Source: a virus (Duplodnaviria > Heunggongvirae > Uroviricota > Caudoviricetes). From it: DNA of 24,740 nucleotides. The notes below the pieces were generated by a model that did not search any database, was not told where the DNA came from, and worked only from the letters and a program-made list of their open reading frames with translations. The DNA is taken from IMG/VR virus record IMGVR_UViG_648276671_000014. One strand, given 5' to 3'. Both the position numbers and the translations under genes were made by a program. Shown here one piece after another: positions 1 through 21,001 of this stretch (position 1 is its first letter; each line of letters opens with the position of its first letter).

Positions 1-1056
1 TTATTGCGGGGTAATGCCAACCGCTGCCGCCACTTTGTCGCCATTTGGTAACGTTGCCAGTGGATTGAAACGGAGCGCCGTTTCCAAATGATCCGGTGCC
101 AGATGCGCATAACGCATAGTCATTTTTATATCGTGGTGTCCGAGAATTTTTTGTAAGGCCAAGATGTTTCCACCCGACATCATGAAGTGCGCCGCAAACG
201 TATGGCGCAGAACGTGTGTCAGTTGACCGCGAGGGAGAACGATAGACGTTTTTTCCATCACGGATAAAAATTGAAAATAGCAGTCTGTGAAGAAATTGAA
301 CCCATCGAGCGCCATGATCTCTTCATAAAGCTCTTTACTGATAGGGATGCTTCTGTTTTTCTTCCCCTTCGTTCTCACAAAGGTGATTCGGTACTTGGTG
401 ACCTGTGAGCGGGTAAGATTGATTGCTTCTCGCCAACGTGCGCCTGTACTTAGACATATTTTTACCACCAGTGCCAGAATTGGGTTCTGACGTTTGCAGT
501 CAGACAGTAATTCGATAATCTGCTCATGTGTAAGCCATGCCATTTCCTTTTCTGCGATAGTGAATTTGCGCATCTTCTCTAATGGGTTTGGAAGTGTCCA
601 TTCACCCAGGCGGGAAAGTTCTCTGAAAACGCTGCTTAGATGGCTTTGCTCCAGGTTAACAGTAACTGGGCTTGCTCCTTTCTTCCATTTTTCACTGAAG
701 TAGATTTCACCAGTAAGGCGTTTATCGCGATAGTGAGCAAACATTTTTGAGGTGAGATCAGTTGCAAGGGGATTTCCCAAGGCGTCAACCATCAACAGCA
801 GCTTGTTGTAGACATGCTGTCCGGCAGTAAGAGATTTGCCATGTAATTTGAACCATAGCTCAACCATATCTTTCAGTGTCCGACGATCCACTGATTCGCC
901 CAGCCAGGGCTTTGCTTCTATTTCCCCCATGGTGTATCGCTCGAAGGCCAGTGCTTCGCCTTTGGTGGCGAATTGTTTACGCACACGACGCCCATTACGT
1001 CCGGCGGGGTAACATTCGCAAAGCCATTTCCCTGTGGTGAGTTTTCGTACTGCCAT
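1..1056 (-). CDS. int: P2/186-family tyrosine integrase. The ORF track extends to 1212, but the likely start is Met53 (MAVRKLTTGKW...) at 1056.
   Basis: The C-terminus (...HVLRHTFAAHFMMSGGNILALQKILGHHDIKMTMRYAHL) carries the R-H-R-Y tyrosine recombinase signature. A GGAGGG SD lies 6 nt upstream of the ATG at 1056. The stop codon is at 1-3. Confidence 0.88.
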   Translation of the reverse strand: MAVRKLTTGKWLCECYPAGRNGRRVRKQFATKGEALAFERYTMGEIEAKPWLGESVDRRTLKDMVELWFKLHGKSLTAGQHVYNKLLLMVDALGNPLATDLTSKMFAHYRDKRLTGEIYFSEKWKKGASPVTVNLEQSHLSSVFRELSRLGEWTLPNPLEKMRKFTIAEKEMAWLTHEQIIELLSDCKRQNPILALVVKICLSTGARWREAINLTRSQVTKYRITFVRTKGKKNRSIPISKELYEEIMALDGFNFFTDCYFQFLSVMEKTSIVLPRGQLTHVLRHTFAAHFMMSGGNILALQKILGHHDIKMTMRYAHLAPDHLETALRFNPLATLPNGDKVAAAVGITPQ

Positions 1057-1244
1057 AAAAAATGCCCTCCAGTAGAGAGCATTTTCACTGTATGTATAAC
1101 CAGTGTCAATGTATGAAATCCTACGACCATACATCTCACTGAAGCCATAATTAAGTTGGCTATTCTTTTTGCTATGTGAGCATGTAATTTTTGCGGTTAA
1201 CCTGCGGCTCATTTTTATTTTAGGCGCAGATATAAAAGCAAAAG

Positions 1245-1436
1245 TTATCGTGAGTTTTTAGTACAGATTTTTTTGGATTTACTAATAGTTCCATCATTGC
1301 AAACGAATTTGCCATCTGAGGTACAGTGAGAAACACCTCCCTTTTTCCCTGAACAGGGATAATTTCTAGCATGGGTAGTTAGTGGGTTTAATAATAAAGA
1401 ACATGACAAAACCACAAAAAATACCTTACCAAGCAT
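1245..1436 (-). CDS. Small secreted Cys-rich protein (63 aa). Predicted signal peptide followed by a ~40-aa mature peptide with 4 Cys. Candidate moron co-transcribed with cI and int.
   Basis: A strong SD (GGGAGGA, 5 nt spacing) lies upstream of the ATG at 1436. The hydrophobic N-terminus [23 protein letters not shown] is signal-like. The region 1213-1450 is AT-rich and sits between cI and int. Confidence 0.5.
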
Positions 1437-1451
1437 AGTTTCCTCCCGGTA

Positions 1452-2021
1452 CTATTTAACATACTTGACTGTTAAACTTATAATTTTACCAATTATTTCA
1501 ATGTCTTCTATCTTGCATTCGAAGGCTCTGTTTCCACCCTCGACGAAGATTCTTCCACCGGGTAAACGAGTAATGTCACGGATCGTTATTTCGCCATCAA
1601 TACTTATTACCCATTTACCATCACGTATATCATCAAATTCCTTATCACAAATAAATTCAAAATTATTATCTGTGATTACAAAAAGATTCTTGAATGCCGA
1701 CGGTAGAAATTCCCTATCGAAAATATAAAAACCGTCTTCACACAAGGCCCCATCAGATAATACATATTTAGCAACTTCCATAGTATTTGTATTACCTGAA
1801 GTTTGCTTTGAACCATGCCCGGTTGTGAGCCAATTAAGCGAGGTGCCCGTTTCAAGGGCGCACTGGATTACCCATTCTGCGGGGAATGAGTCACGCATGT
1901 AGCGTGTGGCGAGTGTACTTTTAGAGATTCCTAAATGATCGCACAACGCCTGTCGAGTCTTGAATCCATAAGCTTCTACCATGCGCTCTATAGCGCCTCG
2001 TCCGCCTTTCTCCAAATTCAT
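1452..2021 (-). CDS. cI: 186-type CI immunity repressor (189 aa). The ATG at 2021 is preferred over the GTG at 2027.
   Basis: The N-terminal HTH (EAYGFKTRQALCDHLGISKSTLATRYMR) resembles phage 186 CI. The length is ~190 aa. It lies divergent from apl/cII, with a promoter/operator region between them. GGAG sits 6 nt before the ATG at 2021. Confidence 0.8.
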   Translation of the reverse strand: MNLEKGGRGAIERMVEAYGFKTRQALCDHLGISKSTLATRYMRDSFPAEWVIQCALETGTSLNWLTTGHGSKQTSGNTNTMEVAKYVLSDGALCEDGFYIFDREFLPSAFKNLFVITDNNFEFICDKEFDDIRDGKWVISIDGEITIRDITRLPGGRIFVEGGNRAFECKIEDIEIIGKIISLTVKYVK

Positions 2022-2045
2022 GGTCACTCCAAGTGAACTTTTGTC

Positions 2046-2074
2046 TTGACGATTTCACCGTGCGATCGTATGTT
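2046..2074 (+). promoter_or_regulatory. Candidate rightward lytic promoter pR. TTGACG (2046-2051), 17-nt spacer, TATGTT (2069-2074). Followed by nested inverted repeats (GTTTGTGGTGTTCACAAAATACAAAC) that are candidate CI operators.
   Basis: Near-consensus sigma70 hexamers with a 17-bp spacer, read directly from the sequence. Located between divergent cI and apl as in phage 186. Confidence 0.5.
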
Positions 2075-2146
2075 TGTGGTGTTCACAAAATACAAACGAT
2101 CCGTATTCGTCCTGATTAATCATCATTAAACGAGGAATGTTGCATC

Positions 2147-2368
2147 ATGAGACCTAACATTTCAATCACTCTTACCACGCCTCATGTGACTATTGAACGC
2201 TATAGCGAGCTGACAGGGCTGTCCATCGATACTATCAATGACATGTTGGCTGATGGACGCCTTATCCGTCACCGTTTGCGCAAAGATAAAAAACGCGAAA
2301 AAGTGATGATCAACATAGCAGCCATGACCGTTGATGCGCTTTCAGAATGCAATCTAAACCTTAATTAG
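2147..2368 (+). CDS. apl: Apl/Cox-like excisionase and transcriptional repressor (73 aa).
   Basis: A small basic HTH protein encoded first in the rightward operon, directly opposite cI as in 186 (apl) and P2 (cox). Confidence 0.65.
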
Positions 2369-2400
2369 TTCGATTCTGAAATACATCAGAGGCATTGACC

Positions 2401-2910
2401 ATGTTTGATTACCAAGTTTCCAAACATCCACATTTTGATGAAGCCTGTCGTGCATTCGCATTGCGCCACAACTTGGTGCAACTGGCAGAACGTGCAGGCA
2501 TGAATGTGCAGATTCTGCGGAACAAGCTGAACCCAGCGCAACCTCATTTATTAACCGCACCAGATATCTGGCTGCTTACTGATCTGACAGAAGACTCAAC
2601 ACTGGTAGATGGTTTTCTGGCACAGATTCATTGTCTGCCATGTGTACCGATTAATGAGGTGGCAAAAGAGAAACTGCCGCATTACGTCATGAGTGCAACC
2701 GCAGAGATCGGGCGTGTTGCTGCAGGTGCGGTATCTGGCGATGTAAAAACCAGTGCAGGTCGTCGTGATGCTATCAGCAGCATTAACTCTGTAACACGAC
2801 TGATGGCGTTGGCTGCTGTTTCATTGCAGGCCCGTTTACAGGCTAACCCTGCGATGGCGAGTGCAGTTGATACCGTGACTGGCCTAGGTGCTTCATTCGG
2901 TTTGCTGTGA
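2401..2910 (+). CDS. cII: 186-type CII lysogeny-establishment activator (169 aa from the ATG at 2401; the ORF track starts at a TTG at 2395).
   Basis: Length and position (directly after apl) match 186 CII (169 aa). The N-terminal region is HTH-like. Confidence 0.7.
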
Positions 2911-2917
2911 GGTGCTT

Positions 2918-3214
2918 ATGCTGACGAAAGAACCATCATTTGCATCGCTGCTGGTAAAGCAAAGCCCGGCAATGCACTACGGTCACGGCTGGATCATGGG
3001 TGAGGATGGAAAACGCTGGCATCCATGTCATTCACAAGATGAATTGCTGTCTGAATTGACCACGAGGAAACGGAGAAAGTCAAAATGTATGCAGCGGAAA
3101 GTGAAGTGGTTTATCAGTTTTGTTACAGAGGGGAGAGTTATTCAGTACCTGAAGATGATTTGCTCTGTTGCTATCCGTCGTTGTCGGGCGATGGCAGTTA
3201 CTTTTTCACGCTAA
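2918..3214 (+). CDS. Fil-like small protein (motif QSPAMHYGHGWIMGEDGKRWHPC). The true 3' end is uncertain because the C-terminal tail overlaps the next ORF in another frame.
   Basis: ATG at 2918. The HGHGW/KRWHPC motif is recalled from 186/P2-like Fil proteins (from memory, unverified). The last ~40 codons look non-protein-like. Confidence 0.4.
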   Translation: MLTKEPSFASLLVKQSPAMHYGHGWIMGEDGKRWHPCHSQDELLSELTTRKRRKSKCMQRKVKWFISFVTEGRVIQYLKMICSVAIRRCRAMAVTFSR

Positions 3215-3309
3215 AGGATGGGACGTTTTTACGGGGAGAGCAGGTTAAAGAGACGGTACGAAAAAATGTATCTCCCCTTGAGCGTTACCGTAAGAACAAA
3301 GAACGATAG
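3085..3309 (+). CDS. Hypothetical early protein (74 aa).
   Basis: A GGAGAAAG SD lies 7 nt upstream of the ATG. The composition is protein-like. It overlaps the tail of the previous ORF. Confidence 0.5.
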   Translation: MYAAESEVVYQFCYRGESYSVPEDDLLCCYPSLSGDGSYFFTLKDGTFLRGEQVKETVRKNVSPLERYRKNKER

Positions 3310-3331
3310 GTGCGTTTGGGGGATATGAAGT

Positions 3332-3673
3332 ATGGCAATTAATGGCGCTGCGGCGACTGTTCCATTAAGCCCCGGTGAACGCCTGAATGGACTTAATCAC
3401 ATTGCGGAATTAAGGGCGAAAGTATTTGGCCTGAATATTGAGTCAGAGCTTGAGCGGTTTATTAAAGATATGCGTGATCCACGGGATATCAATAACGAAC
3501 AAAATAAACGGGCACTGGCTGCTATATTCTTTATGGCAAAAATTCCAGCTGAACGTCATAGCATCAGCATTAATGAGCTGACCACTGACGAAAAGCGGGA
3601 GTTGATTAAAGCAATGAATCATTTTCGTGCAGTGGTGAGCTTATTTCCCAGACGGCTAACCATGCCGAATTAA
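3332..3673 (+). CDS. Hypothetical P2-like early-region protein (113 aa).
   Basis: ORF with an upstream GGGGGA. Conserved position in the early operon of P2-like prophages. Confidence 0.6.
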   Translation: MAINGAAATVPLSPGERLNGLNHIAELRAKVFGLNIESELERFIKDMRDPRDINNEQNKRALAAIFFMAKIPAERHSISINELTTDEKRELIKAMNHFRAVVSLFPRRLTMPN

Positions 3674-3740
3674 CCAACTAATGAAATTAATGGCGTAAAC
3701 CCGCCGGGTATCCCTTTATCTAAATTCAGGAGAATTGATT

Positions 3741-3974
3741 ATGCGTAATATTGAAACTCTCACGACTAAAACCGGACCGGATGATGCAGGGCTTAATATT
3801 TTACTGACAGAGGCTCGTCTGGAAGAACGCCGGGCAAGGGCTGAAGCAATGGCAGCTCGCCTTGATAGCCTGGCGTGTCATATCACATCCCGCCAGCTAA
3901 ACCACGTCGAAGCAGCAGAACTACTGCGTGTAACTGCTGAAGCAATCCAGAACGAAGCGCAGGAGATCCACTAA
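3741..3974 (+). CDS. Hypothetical early protein (77 aa, DUF2732-like). The ATG at 3741 is preferred over the TTG at 3735.
   Basis: AGGAG SD upstream. Coiled-coil-like, Ala/Arg-rich. Confidence 0.6.
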   Translation: MRNIETLTTKTGPDDAGLNILLTEARLEERRARAEAMAARLDSLACHITSRQLNHVEAAELLRVTAEAIQNEAQEIH

Positions 3975-4201
3975 TGGCTGATGCAATGGATCTCGTACAG
4001 CAGCGAGTTGAAGAAGAACGCCAACGTCATATCCGTGCTGCCCGTGCCAAAACACCGGGCGTGTCCCGCGTGCTTTGCGTTGAGTGTGAAGCGCCAATTC
4101 CGCCAGCACGCCGTCGTGCCATTCCGGGTGTGCAGCTTTGCATTACCTGTCAGGAAATCGCAGAGCTGAAAGGCAAACATTACAACGGAGGTGCTGTATG
4201 A
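3974..4201 (+). CDS. TraR/DksA-family C4 zinc-finger protein (P2 Orf82-like, 75 aa).
   Basis: CVECEAPIP...CITCQ is a CxxC-N17-CxxC motif typical of TraR/DksA. TAATG overlap with the upstream gene. AGGAG SD. Confidence 0.75.
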   Translation: MADAMDLVQQRVEEERQRHIRAARAKTPGVSRVLCVECEAPIPPARRRAIPGVQLCITCQEIAELKGKHYNGGAV

Positions 4202-5055
4202 GCACCATCCTGAAATGGGCGGGAAATAAAACCGCCATTATGTCCGAACTGAAAAAACACCTTCCTGCTGGCCCGCGACTGGTTGAACCTTTCGCGGGTT
4301 CCTGTGCTGTGATGATGGCGACGGATTACCCCAGCTATCTGGTTGCTGATATTAATCCTGATTTAATCAACCTCTATAAAAAGATTGCCGCTGATTGCGA
4401 AGCGTTTATATCTCGTGCCAGAGCTTTATTTGAGGAAGCAAACAGGGAGGTGGCTTATTACAACATAAGGCAGGAGTTTAACTGCTCAACTGAAATTACT
4501 GACTTCATGAAAGCAGTATATTTCCTGTATCTCAATCGTCACGGTTACCGTGGGTTATGTCGCTATAACAAGAGCGGGCATTTCAACATTCCCTACGGTA
4601 ATTATAAAAATCCGTATTTCCCTGAAAAAGAAATTCGCGCATTTGCAGAGAAAGCCCAGCGAGCAACGTTTATCTGCGCCAGCTTTGATGAAACGCTGGC
4701 GATGCTGCAGGTGGGGGATGTGGTGTATTGCGATCCGCCTTATGACGGTACGTTTTCCGGCTATCACACTGACGGCTTCACTGAAGATGACCAGTATCAC
4801 CTGGCATCTGTTCTTGAATATCGATCATCAGAAGGTCATCCAGTCATTGTTTCTAACAGTGACACATCCCTGATCCGTTCGCTGTATCGAAATTTCACTC
4901 ACCACTACATCAAGGCAAAACGCAGCATCGGCGTGTCGGCTGGCGAGAGTAAATCTGCAACAGAAATCATTGCTGTTTCCGGGGCGCGCTGCTGGGTGGG
5001 ATTTGATCCTTCGTGTGGCGTGGATAGTTCTGCTGTGTACGAGGTGCGTATATGA
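4198..5055 (+). CDS. dam: DNA adenine methyltransferase (Dam/D12-class N6A MTase, 285 aa from [11 protein letters not shown]).
   Basis: Motif I (KWAGNK...EPFAGS) and motif IV (DPPY) of Dam-family MTases. GGAGG SD. The stop codon overlaps the A start. Confidence 0.85.
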
Positions 5056-7466
5056 GTCATGACGATATGAGCAACTCTAGCGGCTTTAACGAGGCCGCTG
5101 CAGCATTTTCATGGAACGGCCCGAAAAAGGCCATTAACCCTTATCTGGACCCGGCGGAAGTTGCGCCGGAGTCTGCACTTTCAAACCTGATCACTCTGTA
5201 CGCTGCCGATAATGAGCAGGAACAGCTGCGCCGCGATGCACTGAGTGAGCAGGTCTGGGAGCGTTATTTCTTTAATGAATCTCGTGATCCTGTCCAGCGC
5301 GAAATGGAGCAGGATAAGCTCATTAGCCGGGCAAAGCTGGCGCATGAACAGCAGCGTTTTAACCCGGACATGGTCATTCTGGCGGACGTCAGCGCCCAGC
5401 CCACCCATATTAGCAAGCCGCTGATGCAACGTATCGAATACTTCAGCAGCCTGGGCAGGCCAAAGGCTTATTCCCGCTATTTGCGTGAGACGATTAAGCC
5501 ATGTCTGGAGCGACTGGATTGTGTACGTGACAGTCAGCTGTCTGCTTCTTTCCGTTTTATGGCAAGCCATCAAGGGCTGGAGGGCCTGCTGATCCTGCCT
5601 GAAATGAGTCAGGATCAGGTGAAACGCCTGTCCACCCTGGTAGCTGCGCATATGAGCATGTGCCTTGATGCAGCTTGTGGCGATTTGTATGCCACCGATG
5701 ACGTTAAGCCAGAAGAAATCCGCAAGACATGGGAAAAGGTGGCGGCGGAAACCCTGCGTCTGGATGTCATCCCACCTGCGTTTGAGCAACTCCGTCGGAA
5801 AAGAAACCGCCGTAAACCCGTGCCCTATGAACTCATTCCGGGTTCGCTGGCGCGTATGTTGTGCGCCGACTGGTGGTATCGGAAATTATGGAAGATGCGT
5901 TGCGAATGGCGGGAAGAGCAGTTGCGTGCTGTCTGCCTGGTCAGCAAAAAAGCATCTCCCTATGTCAGCTATGAAGCCGTGATGCATAAACGTGAGCAGC
6001 GCCGTAAGTCGCTGGAGTTTTTCCGTTCTCATGAACTGGTGAACGAAGACGGCGACACGCTGGACATGGAGGATGTGGTAAACGCCAGCAGCAGCAACCC
6101 TGCGCATCGCCGCAATGAGATGATGGCCTGTGTTAAAGGTCTGGAGCTTATCGCGGAAATGCGCGGTGACTGCGCCGTTTTCTACACTATCACCTGTCCG
6201 TCACGTTTCCATTCCACGCTCAACAACGGCAGACCCAACCCAACCTGGACAAATGCGACGGTAAGACAAAGCAGCGATTATCTGGTCGGCATGTTTGCTG
6301 CATTTCGTAAGGCAATGCACAAAACCGGGTTGCGCTGGTATGGCGTACGGGTGGCTGAGCCGCACCATGACGGTACTGTGCACTGGCATCTCATGTGCTT
6401 CATGCGTAAAAAAGACCGCCGCGCCATCACTGCATTACTGCGTAAGTTTGCCATCCGTGTAGACCGCGAGGAGCTGGGCAACAATACGGGGCCACGCTTT
6501 AAGTCTGAGCTGATTAACCCGCGCAAAGGAACACCGACAAGCTACATCGCGAAATACATCAGTAAGAACATTGACGGGCGTGGTCTGGCTGGCGAGATCA
6601 GCAAGGAAACGGGTAAATCCCTGCGTGATAACGCCGAATACGTCAATGCCTGGGCGTCTCTGCATCGTGTTCAGCAGTTCCGCTTCTTTGGTATTCCGGG
6701 ACGTCAGGCTTACCGTGAACTTCGCTTGCTGGCTGGTCAGGCGGCAAGGCAACAGGGTGACAAAAAAGCAGGTGCGCCGATACTGGATGACCCGCGCCTT
6801 GATGCCATCCTGGCTGCTGCTGATGCTGGTTGTTTTGCCACCTACATCATGAAGCAGGGCGGCGTACTGGTTCCCCGTAAATATCACCTTATCAGAACCG
6901 CTTATGAAATCAACGAAGAGCCGACCGCCTATGGCGATCACGGCATTCGTATTTATGGCATCTGGTCACCCATTGCAGAGGGCAAGATCTGCACTCATGC
7001 AGTGAAGTGGAAAATGGTTCGTAAGGCCGTTGACGTTCAGGAGGCGGTAGCCGACCAGGGCGCTTGCGCCCCTTGGACTCGTGGCAATAACTGTCCCCTT
7101 GCTGAAAATTTGAACCAACAAGGGAAAGACAAATCAGCTGATGGGGATACCAGGACGGACATTACCCGCATGGATGACAAGGAGTTGCACGATTACCTGC
7201 ACAGTATGAGCAAAAAAGAGCGCCGGGAACTGGCTGCAAGGTTACGCCTGGTGAAACCGAAACGGCGTAAAGACTACAAACAGCGAATTACAGACCATCA
7301 GCGACAGCGGCTCGTCTATGAACTGAAGTCCAGAGGATTTGATGGCAGCGAGAAAGAGGTCGATTTACTCCTTCGCGGCGGCAGTATTCCGTCAGGAGCA
7401 GGCCTGCGTATCTTCTATCGGAACCAGCGTTTGCAGGAAGATGATAAGTGGCGAAACCTGTATTAA
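5052..7466 (+). CDS. A: Replication initiation protein A (rolling-circle nicking endonuclease, 804 aa).
   Basis: Size and position match P2/186 gpA. The [11 protein letters not shown]-type motif and catalytic Tyr-containing region are present. Confidence 0.9.
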
Positions 7467-8052: not shown

Positions 8053-8322
8053 GAAACGTTGCTGGCGTCTGAACTTGCTTCTGGCGTCAGCAAGGTTGAA
8101 CAACGAGCTATGCGAGGCGTTAGTGTCAATTTGTTACCTTAACCACTATATATGCCAGGAAATTAACAGTTCTTAAGAAACCGCTTGCATGATCGAGCGC
8201 ATTGAACTTAAGTTTAAGTAACGAAATCAACAGATGATATTGTTGTCTAAATTTTAAAGATAATCTGTTGAGGTTGTAGGCGTCGGAGTGTAGACTTCCG
8301 CGCCATGTGAAAAGGGGGAGTT

Positions 8323-8538
8323 ATGTCAAGCATCGCCGCATTTAGCCTGGGTAACCCAGTTGAACGTCTGGCAAGGGTTCTTAAAGAGAACCAGGACAAA
8401 CTCAATCTTAGTAAAGATGGTTTTGTGTCCGTAGACTTGTCTAACAAAAGAGCAATGGATGCCATCAAGGCACAGATGGATAAGCTTGAAGGCATCAAAA
8501 CGAGCACTGTAAAAGAGAAAACTAATAGAACCAGATAA
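8323..8538 (+). CDS. Hypothetical small soluble protein (71 aa). First gene of a cargo operon.
   Basis: GGGGGAG SD 4 nt before the ATG. Its stop is coupled to the next start (TAATG). Confidence 0.55.
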   Translation: MSSIAAFSLGNPVERLARVLKENQDKLNLSKDGFVSVDLSNKRAMDAIKAQMDKLEGIKTSTVKEKTNRTR

Positions 8539-8738
8539 TGGCAACATTACTTTTAGCAGTGATTTTGGTTAGTGGTTTTATTTATGTAAACCTATCACTT
8601 TCAACAAGATACCGATATAAGCGTTCCAACGGCTGGGACGCTTATTTTTTGTGGCTGCCTGGGGTATCGTTTTTTTCTCCTTGGCGGTTTTTTCACCTTT
8701 ATTTTGAACGTCAGCGGAGGGTTTCGTTGGCTGGCTAA
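8538..8738 (+). CDS. Small membrane protein (66 aa, N-terminal TM helix). Possibly the N-terminal part of a larger frameshifted gene.
   Basis: Translational coupling (TAATG) with the upstream gene. Hydrophobic N-terminus LLLAVILVSGFIYV. Confidence 0.45.
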   Translation: MATLLLAVILVSGFIYVNLSLSTRYRYKRSNGWDAYFLWLPGVSFFSPWRFFHLYFERQRRVSLAG

Positions 8739-8772
8739 TGCCTTGAATCTAACACCTGACAGTTTTAATGGC

Positions 8773-9378
8773 ATGTTGTCTTCATCGAAAGACAAACTTC
8801 AAAGAATAAATGAAATCAAACAGATAGCATGGGTTATGATTTCAATTGTTCTCGCTGCGATTTCAGGTTTTGGAAATAAGTTACGCACATCACGTGGAGA
8901 TCGTCGCTGGGATGCCTTAGCTAAAGCTGTGGGTAATAACGCTTTCGAATCATTACTCATGGAAGCGTCCGCAAGACAGTTTCCGATCATAGCAACTCTG
9001 TCGTCTCGCAAAATCTATGTTGGTCTTGTTACTTGTCCGGCGTTAGAAAACGGGCTTTCAGAACACCTTGAACTTCTCCCGATGTTAAGCGGATATCGGG
9101 ATAAAGATGATCTAACGATTAGTATCACGACTAACTATCACCAACATTATCTTGATAGTGGTGTGATAAGTGGAATGTCTCGGCTTAATATCGAAGATTT
9201 CCGTGTGCTCATACCAAAAGATGAGGTTGAAACAATTTCGTTTTTTGATACTGAGACATATAACAAATTTAAAGAAAATGAAGCCAGGGATAGAAAGAAC
9301 TGTCGAAAGATTGGTAGTAAAAGTGCATCTTCGCGCAGCAAGCGTGCAGCAGATGCTGAGTCAAATGATCGTGCATGA
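8773..9378 (+). CDS. Hypothetical membrane-anchored protein (202 aa from the first ATG). The reading frame is open from 8590 with no SD, so it may be fused to the previous ORF by a +1 shift in T-runs.
   Basis: Long open frame with a TM segment (IAWVMISIVLAAISGF). Followed by a rho-independent terminator. AT-rich cargo. Confidence 0.45.
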   Translation: MLSSSKDKLQRINEIKQIAWVMISIVLAAISGFGNKLRTSRGDRRWDALAKAVGNNAFESLLMEASARQFPIIATLSSRKIYVGLVTCPALENGLSEHLELLPMLSGYRDKDDLTISITTNYHQHYLDSGVISGMSRLNIEDFRVLIPKDEVETISFFDTETYNKFKENEARDRKNCRKIGSKSASSRSKRAADAESNDRA

Positions 9379-9426
9379 CTATGCTGCATGAGATCGCATG
9401 ATCGTTTGAGGATCGTTTTTGCTAAG

Positions 9427-9451
9427 GCCCGCCAGAACTGGCGGGCTTTTG
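9427..9451 (+). terminator. Rho-independent terminator (GCCCGCC-AGAACT-GGCGGGC-TTTTG).
   Basis: Perfect 7-bp GC stem plus a T-run, read directly. Confidence 0.7.
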
Positions 9452-9496
9452 CGTAGATCATGCACCTGCATGAAAACTACTACATAAAGCGGGCAG

Positions 9497-9515
9497 GCGT
9501 GGCGGGGATACGAGT
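9497..9515. other. cos: cos-like site (GGCGTGGCGGGGATACGAG).
   Basis: Its first 13 nt match the 19-nt cohesive-end sequences of 186 and P2 (GGCGTGGCGGGGAAAGCAT and GGCGAGGCGGGGAAAGCAC, both recalled from memory). It sits between the A-side cargo and Q as in P2. Confidence 0.45.
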
Positions 9516-9697
9516 GCGCGTAATAACTAATATTCCTATTGACTTTCTATGATGCAATAGCTAATTTATTTCTAGGCCTATAGTTTAATTTGGGAAAACG
9601 GCGGAGTATGATTTAGGTTATATATCCGTCATACCGGTTCGATTCCGGTTAGGCAAAGAGCATTTTAGAGTGTTCTTTGCCTAACAGGATACGTAAA

Positions 9698-10447
9698 ATG
9701 ACTGATGACGAGATTAAAAATATTTTCCATGCTCAAACTGATAATGTTAGAGAGCTTGAGAAAGTCTGGAAACAAATAGTCAAAGAAATTAATACTGCAT
9801 TACGAACAGATAATGCAGTCCAAGTTGCACTTAAAACCAAAATGCTAGGTTTGGTTTTTTGCGCTCTTGCCGAAGCTCAATTTTCAAAGTTGATCCACAC
9901 GCCCGGTCAATTTTCCCCTAATGAAATAGAACAGATTAAATATGCAGCTTCATCTAATGTCTCAGATGGATGGTTAAAGTGCATAAATTTGGCTACGAGA
10001 CGACTATCGAAAGGCACAAAGCATAATCATGTTCCTAATGTTATTCAGGAGCTTGAAAGACTAGTTGATGATTTTATAAAAGCGCCAAGTTTAATTAGAA
10101 ATAAAATTGCGCATGGACAATGGGTTGTCGCTCTTAATAGAAAGAATACACATGTGAACTCAGAAATGACACATACTTTGCGTAATTTGACAATAGTGGA
10201 ATTAACAAAGTTTAAAGATGCTTTCACGAGAATGTCGCGAATAGTCGAAGATATTATTAAATCTCCTAATAAAGCTCATTTGCGTGATTATTGGCCGCAG
10301 CTTGAAGAGTTTAGAGCAAAGCAAAAGGAAATGGATAGTTGGACTCTTGCTGAAAAAGTCTTCCAATTAAAAAAGAAATATAATTACTCATCTAATATGA
10401 GATGTGAATCATGCGGTCAGTTACATGTTGATAGAAATAAACAATGA
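9698..10447 (+). CDS. HEPN-like protein with an RNKIAHG (Rx4HG) motif, 249 aa. Candidate abortive-infection or toxin RNase.
   Basis: AT-rich gene between cos and Q. ATG at 9698 (the track ORF starts at a TTG at 9677). The Rx4-6H motif followed by G is characteristic of HEPN nucleases. Confidence 0.55.
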   Translation: MTDDEIKNIFHAQTDNVRELEKVWKQIVKEINTALRTDNAVQVALKTKMLGLVFCALAEAQFSKLIHTPGQFSPNEIEQIKYAASSNVSDGWLKCINLATRRLSKGTKHNHVPNVIQELERLVDDFIKAPSLIRNKIAHGQWVVALNRKNTHVNSEMTHTLRNLTIVELTKFKDAFTRMSRIVEDIIKSPNKAHLRDYWPQLEEFRAKQKEMDSWTLAEKVFQLKKKYNYSSNMRCESCGQLHVDRNKQ

Positions 10448-10537
10448 TGATTATTATTTTGTGACACTTTCAATATTTTAATGCTTTATATATTAGCAAT
10501 GGTCATTAACATGACCATTGCTATGTGACCTAATATA

Positions 10538-11581
10538 TTAGTTATCTTCTGTCCTGAGCGAGTAAAAGCTAAAACGGAGAATTTCTTCACCAAGCCAGTT
10601 ATTTAGTTCCTGTAAACGTTTCTGCAGTGACATTAGTTCATTGCGTACAAAAACGCGACTAGCTTTCTCCACATCCCCAAATCCCCCAACATTATTTGGC
10701 ATTATCCCCATCATCTGTGGCGGCACGCGGTGCGCTGCCATCATGTCATCCCGACTCACGTTCTTGATATTAAGAAATTCATCCTTCGCCGCGACTTCTG
10801 ACAATGGGATGATCTGAAGCCCGTCCTTTTTGCCGTTAGGCGAGTACATAAACAGGTTGCGGAAGTTGCCTGGACCTTTGGCGCTTTTCATCGCGTTGCG
10901 GAGGTTGTTCACATCTTCCTGGTTCTGCGCGGCATCGGTCATGTACATGATGAAGCCTGCATGGCTGCCGTTGATGTAATACTTACGGCGGAACAGCGTG
11001 GCAGACTCGTTGAGCAGGGCGGATGGAATGGCAGAAAGATAGCCGGGCAGGCCGTAGATCTCCTGGTTGATGTCCGGTTCCATCAGATGAAAAATGCTGC
11101 CTTTCGTGAACTGATACGGCTGGGTTGTCATACCGTATTGCACAAACCAGTAGGTATCCAGGTCTAACCCGCGTCGGGTGTATTTTGCCAGCGCAGGCTC
11201 AAGGGCGATAACTTCACCGAATCGGTTCGTGCGTTTCTCCAGGTAGGCGTTACCAAATACCAGATAGTCCTGCACAAAACGCGAAAAAGCCTGCTGGCTG
11301 AGCAGCGGATGAGGGATATAGGTACTGGTCAGAATGTTGCACTTTACTGCAATCGGGGAACTGTGATGCACGGCGGCGCGGAAGGTGCGCGCCAGTCCGT
11401 TAAAGCTGACGGGCGGCTCATACCAACGGTCCATCTGTACGCATTCCACATAGTCCAGCAGTTCACGGCGGTCCAGAACAGGAACGGGATCGCCGAAGCT
11501 GAATGCTTCGGCTGTAGTTTGACTTTTAAGCTGGATCTGTTTCGTCGCCGCAGCTCGGTTCTTCTTACTCTTTCCCATCAA
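10538..11581 (-). CDS. Q: Portal protein (gpQ-like, 347 aa).
   Basis: P2 gene order Q-P leftward, and size (P2 Q is 344 aa). Confidence 0.88.
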   Translation of the reverse strand: MMGKSKKNRAAATKQIQLKSQTTAEAFSFGDPVPVLDRRELLDYVECVQMDRWYEPPVSFNGLARTFRAAVHHSSPIAVKCNILTSTYIPHPLLSQQAFSRFVQDYLVFGNAYLEKRTNRFGEVIALEPALAKYTRRGLDLDTYWFVQYGMTTQPYQFTKGSIFHLMEPDINQEIYGLPGYLSAIPSALLNESATLFRRKYYINGSHAGFIMYMTDAAQNQEDVNNLRNAMKSAKGPGNFRNLFMYSPNGKKDGLQIIPLSEVAAKDEFLNIKNVSRDDMMAAHRVPPQMMGIMPNNVGGFGDVEKASRVFVRNELMSLQKRLQELNNWLGEEILRFSFYSLRTEDN

Positions 11582-13344
11582 AAAATCTCCACAATATTGC
11601 TGGTATTGGCGGATTCGCCCTGCAGCGGTTCGTTAAACAGTGCGTGCATCGTTGCCCATGCCAGATCGGCGTGGCTGGCTTCTTCGCTGCGGCTGGCTTC
11701 ATAGGTCGGGCGGTTGCCACTGGCGGTGGTGGCGCGACGGATTGCCATAAATGACTGCGCAATGTCGGTATGTCCGGCGTCAAACTCCAGACGGCGGTGG
11801 CTGATAATGTCGTAGGCCTTGAGTACCAGGGCGTTTTTAACGTTGGGGTTGTAGACAAACTCCCGGACGGCAGGAAAGAACGCTTTCACGTTCTCGTAAA
11901 CCCCGTGACCAACGCCGGTTGAGTCGATGCCGATGTAGGTCACGTTGTACTGCTCGGTCAGTTTTTTGATTGCGTCAGCCTGGGCGCGGAAGTCCATCCC
12001 GCGCCACTGGTGACGCTCAAGAATGCGAAACTTACCGCCCGGCACGGCTGGCGGTGCCACCACCACGCATCCGGCGCTGTCGCCGTTCTGCGTACCTTTT
12101 GCCGGGTCATAACCGATCCACACTTCGCGCCAGCCAAACGGGCGCAGGGCCAGAGCATGAAAGTCGGTCCAGACTTCCCAACTGTCCACCATGCACGCCT
12201 GCAGCTCGCTGAGCGGAAACACGGACGCGAGATCGTCCACAAACTCGCACATCAGCAGGTTCTGGTATTCGTCCAGGCTGTACTCCATGCGCAACTGGTC
12301 GAGGTCGAACAGGTTACAGCCGCCGCGCACCGCATCTTCCACAGTGACTATCTGGCGGTACTGCCCGTCTGCGCACAGCAGGCCGGGGGCCAGATTGCTG
12401 TGGGACAGGTCGATGTCCACCTTATCGGCTTTGTTGCGCCCACGATTGAACAGCGCACCGGACCAGAACGGATAAGCACTGTGAGTCAGGCTGGATGGCG
12501 TGGAAAAATAGGTTTGTCGCCATTTTTTGTGAATAGCCATCCCGGAAGCCACTTTGCGCAGCTCCTGGAATTTCGGTATCCAGAAATATTCATCCAGATA
12601 CAGGTTGCCGTGGTAACTCTGGGCCGTGCGGGCATTGGTGCCGAGGAAGTAAAGCGTGGCTCCGTTAGGAAGCACCATCGGATCGCCTTTTAGCTCTACC
12701 TCGACTTCTTTGGCGAAGTCGATGATGTACTGCTTAAAGACGTGAGCCTGTGCCTTACTGGCGGAAAGGAAAATCTGGTTACGTCCGGTAAGCAGGGCGT
12801 CAATCAGGGCTTCACGGGCAAAGTAAAAGGTCGCGCCGATCTGGCGTGACTTCAGCAGGTTGCGGATGCGGTTGGTTTTTCCGGCTTCCCACCAGTGGCG
12901 CTGGTAGTTGAACATGGAGGAATGGAAGATTTCTTCCAGTTTCTCAATCTGTTCATCGGTGAAAACATTCTTTTCCGGCTGACGGCGCGGGCCCTTATTG
13001 CGGTTGGCGACGTTAGGGTTTAAGTCAGCTTCGTTGCCGCCATTGTTAAACTTGCCGATCCGCGCGTGGCGCTCCGACTGGCGCGCCAGCAGGTCAATTT
13101 CTTTGAAATCTTTCCCTTCTTTATGCTCCTTCATGATGAGCTGGCAGTAGCGTGCGGCGGTGGTGAGCTGCATCTGATCCAGCGGCCCATAGTCACCCCA
13201 CTTGTCGCGTTTTTTCCAGCTGTGAACGGTTGCAACTTTCTCGCCCAGCATTTCAGCAATGCGGGCTACGCGGTATCCCTGAAAGTACAGCAGCATGGCC
13301 TGCCGACGGGGATCGAGATCTGCGGGTGTCAGTGTGGTGTTCAT
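11578..13344 (-). CDS. P: Terminase large (ATPase) subunit (gpP-like, 588 aa).
   Basis: Size (P2 P is 590 aa), position, and a Walker A-like motif (LKSRQIGATF). Confidence 0.9.
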   Translation of the reverse strand: MNTTLTPADLDPRRQAMLLYFQGYRVARIAEMLGEKVATVHSWKKRDKWGDYGPLDQMQLTTAARYCQLIMKEHKEGKDFKEIDLLARQSERHARIGKFNNGGNEADLNPNVANRNKGPRRQPEKNVFTDEQIEKLEEIFHSSMFNYQRHWWEAGKTNRIRNLLKSRQIGATFYFAREALIDALLTGRNQIFLSASKAQAHVFKQYIIDFAKEVEVELKGDPMVLPNGATLYFLGTNARTAQSYHGNLYLDEYFWIPKFQELRKVASGMAIHKKWRQTYFSTPSSLTHSAYPFWSGALFNRGRNKADKVDIDLSHSNLAPGLLCADGQYRQIVTVEDAVRGGCNLFDLDQLRMEYSLDEYQNLLMCEFVDDLASVFPLSELQACMVDSWEVWTDFHALALRPFGWREVWIGYDPAKGTQNGDSAGCVVVAPPAVPGGKFRILERHQWRGMDFRAQADAIKKLTEQYNVTYIGIDSTGVGHGVYENVKAFFPAVREFVYNPNVKNALVLKAYDIISHRRLEFDAGHTDIAQSFMAIRRATTASGNRPTYEASRSEEASHADLAWATMHALFNEPLQGESANTSNIVEIF

Positions 13345-19203: not shown

Positions 19204-20787
19204 TTAGAGTTTCAGTGAAATCGTATCCTTGTATTTTTGTTTTATTAACATAAAGTAATCATCAATGCTACCAGAGACTAACATTGCTTCATGATCAATT
19301 CCGTTTATATAGAACCCATTGAACTCAATTGAATTTACTCCATATAAATGTTGAATTCTATCTGCGGTTAATTTATTTTCGGCAATACCAACTAAAATAT
19401 AGCCTTTTGCGCTTTTTCCAATATTATTTATTGCTACGCAAGTTTGTAATATTCCTTTTAAACATTCATCATCAAATTCATTTTTACCTGATAAATTAAA
19501 GAACCCCTGTTTGAAATCATAACTTGGTTGTTCAGTTCTAGAATTTGTTAATAGATTGCGAATTTCAGTTACCCAAGCATGATTCACATACTTTTGAGGA
19601 GCAGGTTGGAAGTAGCGACTTATTAATGCAACAAGATCATTAACACTTTTTTCACGAGTGCTTGCAGCCCAGCGGCCACCATCGGTAACCATAATTATGG
19701 TATTGCCAGTGTTTTTTAATTGCGAGAATAAACCTTCTTTATCAATTAATTGCATATTTTGGTTGAAAAGAAGTTCATAAATAGACAAAAACACAGCTTG
19801 ATAATAACGAGGGCATTCTTGAGATGAATTATCCTCCCCTAAAATATGGCTTCTAAAAGTATCATTTTTTCCGTCATATAGGCTTGTAATTAATTCATAT
19901 ACAGCTATGAAATTCTGCTTAATAGTGGCAGCGTTATTGGTTTGAATGAAAGACTCTAATTGCTGTCTGACACCATGAGCATGAGAGGAGTTTCCTTGAC
20001 CATAGAATGTGTCGAGAGAAGTTGACCCAGATGTGGGTTTTTCTTCTAGACTGATATATGCAAGGATATTGGCTATCAATTCCTCGTCATCAGAATCACG
20101 AATACTTCGTCTTGTTAAAATATGATGTTTTATATAAAAGTGGTTATCGATATTTACCCCGTACTCCAATCTATCGTTACTGATTGAAATTTTGTGCATT
20201 TGCTGGAGATTCATAATGTCAGAATGGCTAGTATCACCTCTGATCGATGTTGATATCGATCTGACCAGTTCAGAGAAGTTACTAACTGTTCCTGCACTAC
20301 GTAATTCTTGTTTGGATAAAATCTTCCCGTTTGAGTTTATTCGTCTGAATACTTCGTCAATATTTTCATTTGTGGAGCTATATTCTGATATTGCAAATCG
20401 ATAACGTGCAATAATTGCTGAAGAATCACGGGAAAGAATTGGTTCTTTCTGAATTAAAGTTCCATTATCTTTAAGTTGTTTTGTTAAAGCTATAGAGTCC
20501 AAATCAAAATATTGTCCATCTAATGAAAATCTCTGTTCGATGAAGCTCATAATTGCTTCTAATCTTTGCATTCCATCCAATATTTCTCTTTGTTCATTGA
20601 TGGTAACAAATAATAATAACGGAATAGGATATTGTTGCAGCATAGAAGATATTAAAGAAGTCTTTTCTTCTAGAGACCATACAAGTTTCCTTTGATAACG
20701 TCTATTGACTATCAAATTTCCTTGCAAATACCATTCGTATAATTGCTCGGTAGTCCTTGAGTCAATATCAAGATTTTCATTTGGCAT
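19204..20787 (-). CDS. DUF262-domain protein (ParB/Srx-like, DGQQR-type motif ILDGMQRLEAI; GmrSD N-terminal family), 527 aa. Candidate anti-phage or type IV restriction-like function.
   Basis: Markedly AT-rich insertion between S and V. AAGGAG SD 8 nt before the ATG at 20787 (the track ORF starts 13 codons earlier). N-terminal motifs NRRYQRKLVW, YPIPLLLF and DGMQRL are typical of DUF262. No HNH/DUF1524 motif is recognisable in the C-terminus. Confidence 0.78.
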   Translation of the reverse strand: MPNENLDIDSRTTEQLYEWYLQGNLIVNRRYQRKLVWSLEEKTSLISSMLQQYPIPLLLFVTINEQREILDGMQRLEAIMSFIEQRFSLDGQYFDLDSIALTKQLKDNGTLIQKEPILSRDSSAIIARYRFAISEYSSTNENIDEVFRRINSNGKILSKQELRSAGTVSNFSELVRSISTSIRGDTSHSDIMNLQQMHKISISNDRLEYGVNIDNHFYIKHHILTRRSIRDSDDEELIANILAYISLEEKPTSGSTSLDTFYGQGNSSHAHGVRQQLESFIQTNNAATIKQNFIAVYELITSLYDGKNDTFRSHILGEDNSSQECPRYYQAVFLSIYELLFNQNMQLIDKEGLFSQLKNTGNTIIMVTDGGRWAASTREKSVNDLVALISRYFQPAPQKYVNHAWVTEIRNLLTNSRTEQPSYDFKQGFFNLSGKNEFDDECLKGILQTCVAINNIGKSAKGYILVGIAENKLTADRIQHLYGVNSIEFNGFYINGIDHEAMLVSGSIDDYFMLIKQKYKDTISLKL

Positions 20788-21001
20788 AATTTTTCTCCTT
20801 GTTAGATTGAACTTATATATTGTCAATAAACATCTTTTGTGTCAAAGATTACATAGTAACTGCCTAAATTAATTGGCTTTTAATAATTAAAGACGTAGCT
20901 TTCAAGTGCTTTTTTAAGAGCATTGAACTTCTTAACTTGCGCAACGTCATTCGACCTTTTGCAACGTATTAATGCTCTAACGCAGACCATTGAAAGGCAT
21001 T

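Follow-up and report, generated by a model that had tools for sequence, protein, structure and literature searches.

A HEPN-like gene and its conserved tRNA-like leader RNA in the cos–Q cargo slot of a P2-like Escherichia coli prophage

The DNA analyzed here (IMG/VR record IMGVR_UViG_648276671_000014, Caudoviricetes; the whole stretch of 24,740 nucleotides (nt) is called the window) is a P2/Fels-2-like prophage (Peduoviridae) of E. coli, and the element in question is an AT-rich cassette that lies between its cos site and its portal gene Q (Table 1). A first-pass annotation had noted at this place an AT-rich insertion with a single gene, and both are present as it described: the open reading frame (ORF) encodes a protein of 249 amino acids (aa), and the G+C content is 0.30–0.37 over positions 9500–10700 (0.35 over 10400–10699), compared with 0.44 just upstream and 0.52–0.62 in the portal and terminase genes. 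That inventory was correct for the gene and incomplete for the DNA in front of it, as a promoter, a tRNA-like RNA and a hairpin that fill positions 9539–9689 had been overlooked. The tRNA-like RNA and the protein, which is HEPN-like, prove to be inseparable across phyla.

Table 1. Coordinates of features in the window, of helices in the predicted protein, and of related genes at homologous loci (L numbers)
Feature	Position	Strand	Details
Integrase	1-1212	-	
CI	1452-2027	-	
CII	2395-2910		
Dam methylase	4138-5055		
gpA	5052-7466		
DinI-like gene	ends 8052		
First variable stretch (slot 1)	8124-9370		gpA side of cos
Conserved cos block	9371-9523		terminator-like hairpin 9421-9452; cos core near 9497-9515; left anchor of cargo slot
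Foreign AT-rich cassette	9524-10592		right border between 10592 and 10636, within 3′ end of Q
Sigma-70 promoter	9539-9567	+	-35 TTGACT 9539-9544; 17-nt spacer; -10 TAATTT 9562-9567
tRNA-like leader RNA	9574-9658	+	
Acceptor stem	9576-9580 with 9650-9654		
U8	9581		
D-stem	9583-9586 with 9596-9599		G18/G19 at 9592-9593
Anticodon-position arm	9600-9630		long AT-rich hairpin without a 7-nt loop
T-arm	9633-9649		loop TTCGATT; 3′ tail AAAG, no CCA
Alternative long hairpin	9644-9689	+	T-arm 3′ half, 3′ acceptor strand and AAAGAGCA pair with TGTTCTTTGCCTAACAGGA
HEPN-like gene	9698-10447	+	ATG 9698; 249 aa, basic, all-helical
RNKIAHG codons	10097-10117	+	R134-G140, putative catalytic Rx4H
Protein, first helical hairpin	helices 3-36 and 40-66		
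Protein, insert between helices 2 and 3	helices 74-84 and 88-101		
Protein, core helix 3	helix 112-138		RNKIAHG motif in last turn
Protein, kinked helix 4	helices 155-162 and 166-188		
Protein, C-terminal hairpin	residues 195-233		
Palindrome	10494-10523		arms 10494-10506 and 10511-10523, 13 nt, 100% complementary; 4-nt loop
Portal gene Q	10538-11581	-	Pfam Phage_portal; right anchor of cargo slot
Terminase P	11578-13344	-	head, lysis and tail genes beyond
L072, module 1	gene 1881-2588		type B RNA; 235-aa gene
L072, module 2	RNA 3390-3515; gene 3517-4290		type A-like RNA; 257-aa gene
PD-T7-1/PD-T7-5 gene, L093/L094	4179-5597		
PD-T7-1/PD-T7-5 gene, L016	6877-8025		
PD-T7-1/PD-T7-5 gene, L031	4627-5691		

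The T-loop sequence GGTTCGATTCC was spotted within the 175 nt between cos and the ATG, and a T-arm element recurs on the same strand in nearly all homologous loci retrieved, 25–107 nt ahead of the point where the protein match begins; the distance exceeds 200 nt only in distant viral loci whose match starts inside the protein, and the exceptions lacking the element are contigs that end before its position. Transcription is predicted to start at 9574/9575, the first nucleotide of the tRNA-like RNA. The same arrangement is seen in 98 distinct upstream regions anchored on the RNA, which share TTGACA and, after a spacer of 17 nt, (TG)nTAnAAT, whose last base precedes RNA position 1 by 7 nt; that position is G in 73% of them. 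A terminator scan of the window found none between RNA and ORF, so that the gene's mRNA begins with the tRNA-like RNA. The leader hairpin considered below was not called in that scan and has no T-run, and its interpretation as an intrinsic terminator was rejected on both grounds.

In a plain, structure-blind MAFFT alignment of 51 leaders from many phyla (alignment A3), the RNA is a cloverleaf with an acceptor stem of 5 base pairs (bp), U8, A14, a D-stem, G18/G19, a variable hairpin at the anticodon position and a T-arm. U8, A14, G53, T54, Psi55, C56, A58 and C61 are invariant, and G10, G18, G19 and A21 are conserved at 90% or more. Bases are paired in 92.9% of the alignment cells that the cloverleaf pairs, 11 of its 14 pairs change on both sides, and its covariation score is 0.565, compared with 0.239 for shuffled alignments (none of 500 reaches the observed value) and at most 0.115 when the partners are slid. 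Consistent with the alignment, the minimum free energy (MFE) structure of positions 9574–9658 folded alone is the cloverleaf (−24.9 kcal/mol).

A covariance model built from the alignment (R1) has its sole match in the window at 9572–9706 (89.5 bits, E = 1.5e-17), and elsewhere it finds exactly one strong match per locus, always on the strand of the gene and ending at the start codon, with no match in relatives that carry other cargo. The arrangement of RNA and promoter is present in the window leader and in all of the ~100 loci found by way of the protein for which upstream sequence is available. When metagenomes were searched with the RNA instead, 57 loci were recovered, and the protein family lies immediately downstream in 54 of them, which is 54 of 54 informative cases; the other three are two genuine tRNA-Cys genes and one contig that ends after 151 nt. 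The two tRNA-Cys loci (L111 and L117), candidates for an RNA without the gene, were rejected as such since they match the pattern by accident. The association is kept down to 19–25% protein identity (L103–L107).

The leader is not a decoding tRNA, as it has no anticodon loop, a 5-bp acceptor stem and no CCA. Acceptor pairs 1–2 are G·A mismatches, leaving five pairs rather than the seven of a tRNA, and among 94 distinct sequences the loop at the anticodon position measures 3 nt in 26, 4 nt in 48, 5 nt in 7, 6 nt in 9, 7 nt in 1 and 11 nt in 1, while two arms have no predicted hairpin; 22 of the 48 tetraloops are GNRA and 4 are UNCG. ARAGORN with default settings calls no tRNA. In three loci the match to the Rfam tRNA model attains the gathering score, with partial matches to the tmRNA clan elsewhere, and no dedicated family came up when the window leader and 13 loci were searched permissively against Rfam 15; the leader is a new structured-RNA family absent from Rfam. 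Partial matches to RF01850, the two-piece, permuted betaproteobacterial tmRNA, occur at 9633–9693 in the window and in L027, L033, L002 and L046 (21–27 bits, E = 3e-5 to 7e-3) and extend over T-arm, 3′ acceptor strand, loop and downstream strand, the loop sequence AAGgGCAUU...GAGUGUU included. In permuted tmRNA precursors the acceptor hairpin resembles the leader hairpin, a hint that RNase P or an enzyme trimming 3′ ends may process the leader.

Integrases often target the 3′ ends of tRNAs, and at the border of the foreign DNA, beside cos, where the element is located, a tRNA-gene remnant or an attachment (att) site might be looked for. Such an origin is highly improbable and was rejected: all stems show compensatory changes, the element keeps the strand of the gene and a fixed distance from it in ~150 loci of many phyla, and the RNA is transcribed from a promoter of its own starting at its nt 1 and has no anticodon loop.

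A second fold competes with the cloverleaf. In the window it is a long hairpin formed from an inverted repeat of 19 nt (89% complementary), and it includes the Shine-Dalgarno (SD) sequence AGGA at 9686–9689, which is paired with UCC of the T-arm. In proteobacterial-type leaders the 3′ acceptor strand and the AAAGNGCA that follows it also pair with the downstream strand; all 15 core pairs of this hairpin show compensatory changes, 95.6% of cells are paired, and the covariation score is 0.739, compared with 0.277 for shuffled alignments (0 of 500) and at most 0.196 for slid partners. The same five nucleotides thus covary with two partners, which indicates two selected, mutually exclusive structures. 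For positions 9574–9700 the MFE structure is the long hairpin (−45 kcal/mol, z-score −5.8), with the acceptor stem and T-arm dissolved. The hairpin is likewise the MFE fold in 89 of 90 family leaders, and the tRNA part in isolation forms the 5′–3′ acceptor stem in 76 of the 90. Among the 59 leaders with a recognizable SD-like motif, at least three SD bases are paired in 40, one or two in 16 and none in 3. Judged by these predicted folds, the long hairpin would be the default state, in which translation is OFF.

A second type of leader has a GGGGG/CCCCC acceptor stem, a GCAT/ATGC D-stem and no downstream hairpin, with the start codon 15–30 nt after the acceptor (L053, L057, L065, L066, L068, L070, L071, L077, L079, L080, L084, L085, L087, L089 and L090). 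It occurs in Bacteroidota and in some other lineages (Pantoea, L077; Paraburkholderia, L090; Microcoleus, L079), and the proteins encoded behind it appear from their sequences to form a subclade with Q instead of K at position 64. As the hairpin is missing from this type, the cloverleaf is the universal part of the leader.

The protein has an isoelectric point of 9.4. An in-frame TTG at 9677, upstream of the ATG, falls within the leader hairpin, and the N-termini of homologues align with the ATG at 9698. The family comprises 160 clusters among 5.8 billion proteins and 447 representatives among 1.84 billion, and it is rare and patchy, occurring in 188 of 185,579 species genomes (Proteobacteria, Bacteroidota, Cyanobacteria, Acidobacteriota, Nitrospirota, Planctomycetota, Firmicutes and others) and in 15 viral contigs, with no member in 50,697 deposited phage genomes. 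Nearly all members are single-domain proteins of 225–260 aa. In 46 sequences reaching down to ~20% identity, R134, N135 and Q141 are invariant and N16, E59, W92, A138, H139 and G140 are at least 90% conserved, the His of Rx4H being lost in one member; no feature of the family is better conserved than the Rx4H motif. The first-pass annotation had matched RNKIAHG (residues 134–140) to the Rx4-6H motif of HEPN RNases, with the proviso that the match should be dropped if no HEPN-like fold was predicted and the Arg and His were not conserved among homologues; by these counts both residues are conserved. No Pfam, NCBIfam or PADLOC (PADLOC-DB 2.0) model matches the protein, and its sole model match is PHROG 12663, to which no function is assigned there. 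A C-terminal tail, RCESCGQLH (CxxC...H; residues 233–242, nt 10394–10423), is confined to the enterobacterial clade (window, E. coli and Pantoea), and by its sequence may be a small metal-binding or clade-specific interaction tail.

HEPN proteins are defined (PMC3710099) as a bundle of two α-hairpins whose Rx4-6H motif closes helix 3 and opens the loop to helix 4, with N, D or H directly behind the Arg; helix 2 carries an acidic residue (typically in Ex3[KR]) beside the motif, helices 2 and 3 are separated by an insert, helix 4 is kinked, and the RNase activity is metal-independent and comes from a composite dimer site. AlphaFold2 returned a confident, all-helical model (predicted local distance difference test, pLDDT, 91.7; predicted template modeling score, pTM, 0.86), with a pLDDT of 93.8 for the core (residues 1–192), and helix boundaries were read from its DSSP assignment. 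In this model R134-x4-H139 stands at the end of core helix 3, the invariant N135 supplies the polar residue after the Arg, and an insert separates helices 2 and 3. E59 lies in helix 40–66 and is followed by K64, a spacing of Ex4K versus the typical Ex3K. Sub-threshold Pfam matches recur to HEPN_AbiU2, MAE_28990, Swt1, RiboL-PSP and Cthe_2314, to six HEPN families overall, and in a diverse set of members the Pfam families matched by two or more are HEPN families only. Taken together, sequence and model indicate a HEPN-like protein of a new family outside Abi_2 and every curated HEPN family. Matches to IMEF_Flp (ferritin-like encapsulin cargo) in 38 of 52 close members were rejected as local helical resemblance: they span only the C-terminal helix hairpin (residues ~169–229, 60 of 135 profile positions) and are gone in the diverse set, and no ExxH di-iron pattern occurs in the family.

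No conserved protein neighbor was found in an all-against-all BLAST comparison of ORFs within 3.5 kilobases (kb) at 82 loci, where the commonest neighbor family is present at 5 loci and at varying positions. A conserved protein partner or antitoxin, including HEPN-MNT (type VII) or any other two-protein toxin–antitoxin (TA) pair, was rejected on this basis. The first-pass annotation, which saw no cognate antitoxin or MNT partner and asked how self-toxicity is controlled, was right as regards proteins and missed what does co-occur strictly with the gene, a cis-encoded tRNA-like leader with a hairpin over the ribosome-binding site. This leader is the obvious candidate for controlling self-toxicity.

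Of nine neighbors tested from homologous loci, eight are PADLOC defense proteins; in the same test the upstream ORF in slot 1 of the window itself gave no match. The defense neighbors include a retron I-A (reverse transcriptase (RT), PtuA-like ATPase and PtuB-like HNH protein) in an Edwardsiella prophage (L004), a retron I-C RT-Toprim in Salinivibrio (L003), IetA and IetS in Variovorax (L006), PD-T7-1 in L093, PD-T7-5 in L016, and a PD-T7-3-like gene in Olleya (L072), which also has a second complete RNA-plus-gene module. In the latter, Olleya namhaensis, two such modules stand in tandem (116–4290) after a 505-aa PD-T7-3 (DARNA)-like HEPN gene. At four loci a PD-T7-1/PD-T7-5 family gene lies within 120–310 nt of the module, on its upstream side at one and on its downstream side at the other three, and in L093/L094 both genes occupy the cos–Q slot of a degraded P2-like prophage; the adjacency may reflect a preferred partnership or just a shared hotspot.

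Some of these neighbors target tRNA (retron I-A PtuAB and the PD-T7-3-like gene), and the module often stands beside such systems. This, together with the facts that the RNA mimics a tRNA without the usual cleavage site and that tRNA is a frequent target of defense systems, would suit a reading in which the tRNA-like RNA is the main product, either a decoy that shields prophage or host from tRNA-targeting nucleases (counter-defense) or bait for sensing phage enzymes that act on tRNA, with the protein as an accessory RNA-binding or processing factor. We regard this as improbable. The invariant RNxxxH signature favors catalysis over an accessory role, and the family, absent from 50,697 phage genomes and mostly chromosomal in defense islands, has the distribution of a defense gene and not that of a counter-defense gene.

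The cassette itself is variable cargo. Fels-2-like homology covers the conserved cos block, ends at 9523/9524 (range 9523–9538) and returns only at 10593–10637 inside the 3′ end of Q, so that the last 55–100 nt of Q (10538 to ~10592–10636) belong to the foreign segment. The insertion of ~1 kb between cos and the portal gene noted earlier is thus present with slightly wider borders, and by sequence comparison the foreign DNA replaces the end of the portal gene. The cos block is 92–96% identical to that of Fels-2, phage 813R9, Klebsiella prophages and about 1,190 E. coli records, and the structural region is 96–97% identical to Escherichia phage Cartapus and Klebsiella prophages. The cassette has no match in the 50,697 phage genomes, and in 5,426 complete E. 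coli genomes its cos end alone was matched, most of the query being covered nowhere. The same cassette is found in metagenome contigs at 96.6–97.7% identity (L001/L002) and 73% identity (L093/L094), and the exact protein is encoded by 60 or more contigs from draft assemblies of E. coli and by Salmonella Emek, with a 75% relative in Pantoea. Five E. coli prophages in draft genomes carry an identical cos–Q cassette with five different contents in the slot across cos, and the two slots therefore assort independently.

The P2 hotspot is defined as the whole gpA–gpQ interval around cos (PMC9122126; PMC13586616), and the cassette is variable cargo inside it, on the Q side of cos: it lies between gpA and gpQ beside cos, and the content of this position varies among related prophages. 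A cos–portal spacing of ~100 bp, which the first-pass annotation took as its baseline, does not apply to the closest relatives, where the cos–Q interval is a regular cargo slot. As that annotation had suggested checking, related prophages hold different genes there, namely an AIPR gene in Fels-2, a Hypoth_Ymh gene in phage 813R9 and a 380-aa protein of unknown kind in E. coli LD26-1; Hypoth_Ymh was compared with the HEPN-like protein and rejected as a relative. That the gene is instead a P2-like packaging factor is as good as discounted, because it is absent from nearly all P2-like relatives. The description of an Abi (abortive infection) or toxin-type gene in the P2 defense hotspot fits, on sequence grounds, both the variable gpA–gpQ cargo and the homologues in defense islands.

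Several further features of the prophage were noted. A perfect 11-nt inverted repeat (9523–9533, ATAACTAATAT; 10535–10545, ATATTAGTTAT) lies at the left foreign border and over the Q stop codon, and could be chance in AT-rich DNA or the trace of a cassette exchange. Slot 1 contains ORFs at 8323–8538, 8538–8738 and 8704–9378, none of them matched in Pfam or PADLOC. The ORF at 19204–20826 on the minus strand encodes 540 aa with a GmrSD_N/DUF262 domain (type IV restriction-like); flanked by the lysis/tail-completion genes on one side and baseplate gene V on the other, it looks like a third insertion of cargo or defense genes. The Dam-type N6-adenine methyltransferase gene directly upstream of gpA, which is of the D12 class and overlaps the gpA start, is a possible anti-restriction or regulatory accessory of the prophage lineage.

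Downstream of the HEPN-like gene, the palindrome reported at first pass, with its perfect 13-bp arms, was confirmed. It lies between two convergent stop codons, those of the HEPN-like gene and Q, and ends 14 nt before the Q stop at 10538. Its folding energies on the two strands are −19.3 and −20.3 kcal/mol (z about −5; 0 of 200 shuffles as stable). L001, which is 97% identical, retains the arms with a different loop, and a Shimwellia homologue has a canonical stem and T-run terminator at the position of the palindrome. The palindrome is probably a two-way transcription stop or an RNA-stabilizing end hairpin; it has no T-run of its own, and for that reason a terminator role is only inferred.

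Among characterized systems the closest in organization is AbiF, which is neutralized by the non-coding RNA in its own 5′ untranslated region; this RNA binds the protein in trans and also affects expression in cis (PMC12373285). AbiF with the abiF motif RF03085 (RCd22 of C. difficile phi027/phiC2) resembles the present module in being a prophage-borne RNxxAH protein with one sigma-70-type promoter, a structured 5′ leader and no protein antitoxin. It differs in several respects: none of 98 members scanned matches PF07751; hhalign against a 37-sequence AbiF profile aligns only 43 columns around the motif (P 0.009, probability 4.6%), the best segment being motif-on-motif; AbiF has ~290 aa versus 249 aa here; and the leader here is a tRNA-like cloverleaf with a switch hairpin and no intrinsic terminator. 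Membership in Abi_2/AbiD/AbiF was rejected on the first two of these grounds, and the abiF motif was not found in the leaders covered by the Rfam searches above. HepS of Gifsy-1 is a solo HEPN anticodon nuclease in a prophage (PMC13043305). With ApeA and DARNA/PD-T7-3 it shares with the present gene, a putative HEPN defense gene, the single-protein layout at a prophage or hotspot position with no conserved protein partner, and the characterized ones cut tRNA anticodon loops and cause abortive infection; unlike them, the present protein shows no detectable sequence relationship (no PADLOC and no PDB match), and for them no tRNA-like leader is reported, control being exerted through protein conformation and phage triggers.

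Type III TA systems (ToxIN, AbiQ/antiQ, CptIN and TenpIN), which act by abortive infection and reside on mobile elements, likewise place an RNA, the expected neutralizer, just upstream of an endoribonuclease toxin. Their antitoxins consist of tandem repeats from which the toxin cuts pseudoknot units, whereas here there is a single non-repeated tRNA-like unit, with no tandem or direct repeats in 9380–10640 beyond chance-size pairs, and their toxin fold is ToxN-like versus HEPN-like here. With tRNA, the tRNA-like domain of tmRNA, YrlA Y RNA and the thrS operator the leader shares a cloverleaf with canonical D-loop/T-loop elbow nucleotides; in contrast to them it lacks an anticodon loop and CCA, has a 5-bp acceptor with G·A at pairs 1–2, forms the 5′ end of an mRNA, and is found in no SmpB, Ro60 or synthetase context. 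The gpA–gpQ (old/tin) cargo of P2 (Rousset et al. 2022) belongs to the same class of locus beside cos and is as highly variable among relatives, the present cassette differing in that it lies on the Q side of cos and its family in no PADLOC-DB 2.0, Pfam or NCBIfam model. Full-text literature searches, with subscription-only papers outside their scope, contained no description of a tRNA-like RNA tied to a HEPN or Abi protein. A prophage-hotspot HEPN toxin under a structured leader RNA is therefore known in kind from AbiF, and what is new is the protein family, the tRNA-like RNA and the two-fold switch, which are not in Pfam, NCBIfam, PADLOC 2.0 or Rfam 15.

On balance we lean, by a modest margin of belief, toward the view that the cassette is an RNA-gated HEPN module of abortive-infection or TA-like type, directed against phage, in the P2 gpA–gpQ hotspot. 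One sigma-70 promoter would give a single transcript consisting of an 85-nt tRNA-shaped 5′ part and the HEPN-like coding part, and the protein would cleave RNA, most likely tRNA, independently of metal. In uninfected cells the hairpin would hold translation low, and the cloverleaf may be bound by the protein as an uncleavable tRNA decoy, either as antitoxin or as autoregulatory operator, by analogy with RCd22 and AbiF. Infection would tip the balance, whether by transcription shut-off with decay of a labile leader, by capture or cutting of the tRNA fold by a phage or host factor, or by some other trigger, upon which the RNase would be made or released and translation would stop. The invariant tRNA elbow implies a reader of the tRNA shape, for which the protein that co-evolves with it is the simplest candidate; a copy of tRNA without an anticodon loop would be the design expected of a non-cleavable decoy for an anticodon nuclease, and the characterized solo HEPN defense proteins HepS, DARNA and ApeA are nucleases of this kind. 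That the module is of an undescribed RNA–protein immune or toxin type, in which the anticodon-less leader is both gate (cloverleaf open to translation, hairpin closed) and decoy for a HEPN tRNase and the tRNA-handling machinery of the cell or the phage is what is sensed, is a possibility that we put forward tentatively.

The leader evidence also bears on a simpler alternative, in which the protein is a solo HEPN Abi protein of the HepS/ApeA/DARNA type, inactive by conformation and triggered by phage, and the leader acts only in cis as an expression gate or on mRNA stability. Solo HEPN defense proteins lacking a partner are established, the SD-covering hairpin is the best-supported function of the leader, and AbiD1, in which a leader hairpin blocks translation, offers a precedent (it is mentioned in PMC12373285). 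A simple gate would nevertheless need no full tRNA elbow, yet U8, A14, G18, G19, G53, T54, Psi55, C56, A58 and C61 are invariant or nearly so over phyla, and Bacteroidota-type leaders keep the cloverleaf without the hairpin, which argues against a leader that is a gate only. We consider the cis-only alternative rather unlikely and give it about half the weight of the RNA-gated module.

Several observations weigh against the RNA-gated reading as well. As regards the switch, the SD-covering extension of the hairpin pairs in only 47–82% of rows, and because its partner, the T-loop, is invariant it cannot covary, so that this extension is suggestive only; moreover, the cloverleaf without hairpin in Bacteroidota-type leaders means that the switch is not universal. 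As regards the decoy, binding of the protein to the cloverleaf would favor the ON fold, and a pure antitoxin model may accordingly be too simple; this is the weakest link of the proposal. As regards the protein, all Pfam matches to HEPN families are below threshold and might rest on the motif alone, and no HEPN protein, solved or curated, is matched significantly by structure or by profile, the PDB having yielded nothing in searches of either sequence or profile type. It is because fold and profile searches are not significant that the protein is termed "HEPN-like" and not HEPN, and of the earlier HEPN-like assignment the part that stands is motif conservation, motif position, the helix-2 Glu and the recurrent weak matches.

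The same empty searches, and the ease with which helical bundles are over-interpreted, favor the alternative that the protein is not HEPN, but a helical protein in which RNKIAHG serves binding or structure, in a cassette with a non-defense role such as prophage gene regulation. We hold this to be quite improbable, as the motif and its place, the Asn behind the Arg, a Glu in predicted helix 2 (in Ex4K spacing) and the insert ahead of helix 3 are jointly in line with the HEPN definition, the recurrent weak matches go to HEPN families only, and the defense-island context fits.

The question behind single-gene HEPN defense proteins is how a potentially lethal RNase is kept silent without an antitoxin, and the cassette suggests a testable answer, namely a leader RNA that is either a tRNA look-alike or a hairpin blocking the ribosome site. 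This leader is conserved with the protein from Enterobacteria to Bacteroidota, Cyanobacteria and Firmicutes, and an anticodon-less tRNA mimic joined to a HEPN gene across phyla will be unexpected to specialists. The finding, if confirmed, would also carry the caution that "orphan" defense genes should be checked for conserved upstream RNAs. The AbiF arrangement has been proposed as the root of Cas13, and if the RNA-gated model is true, this would be the second, independent HEPN nuclease governed by its own 5′ RNA, after AbiF. The P2 hotspot would then have yielded a compact (~1 kb) new defense candidate, and tRNA mimicry would be a means by which an immune system is regulated.

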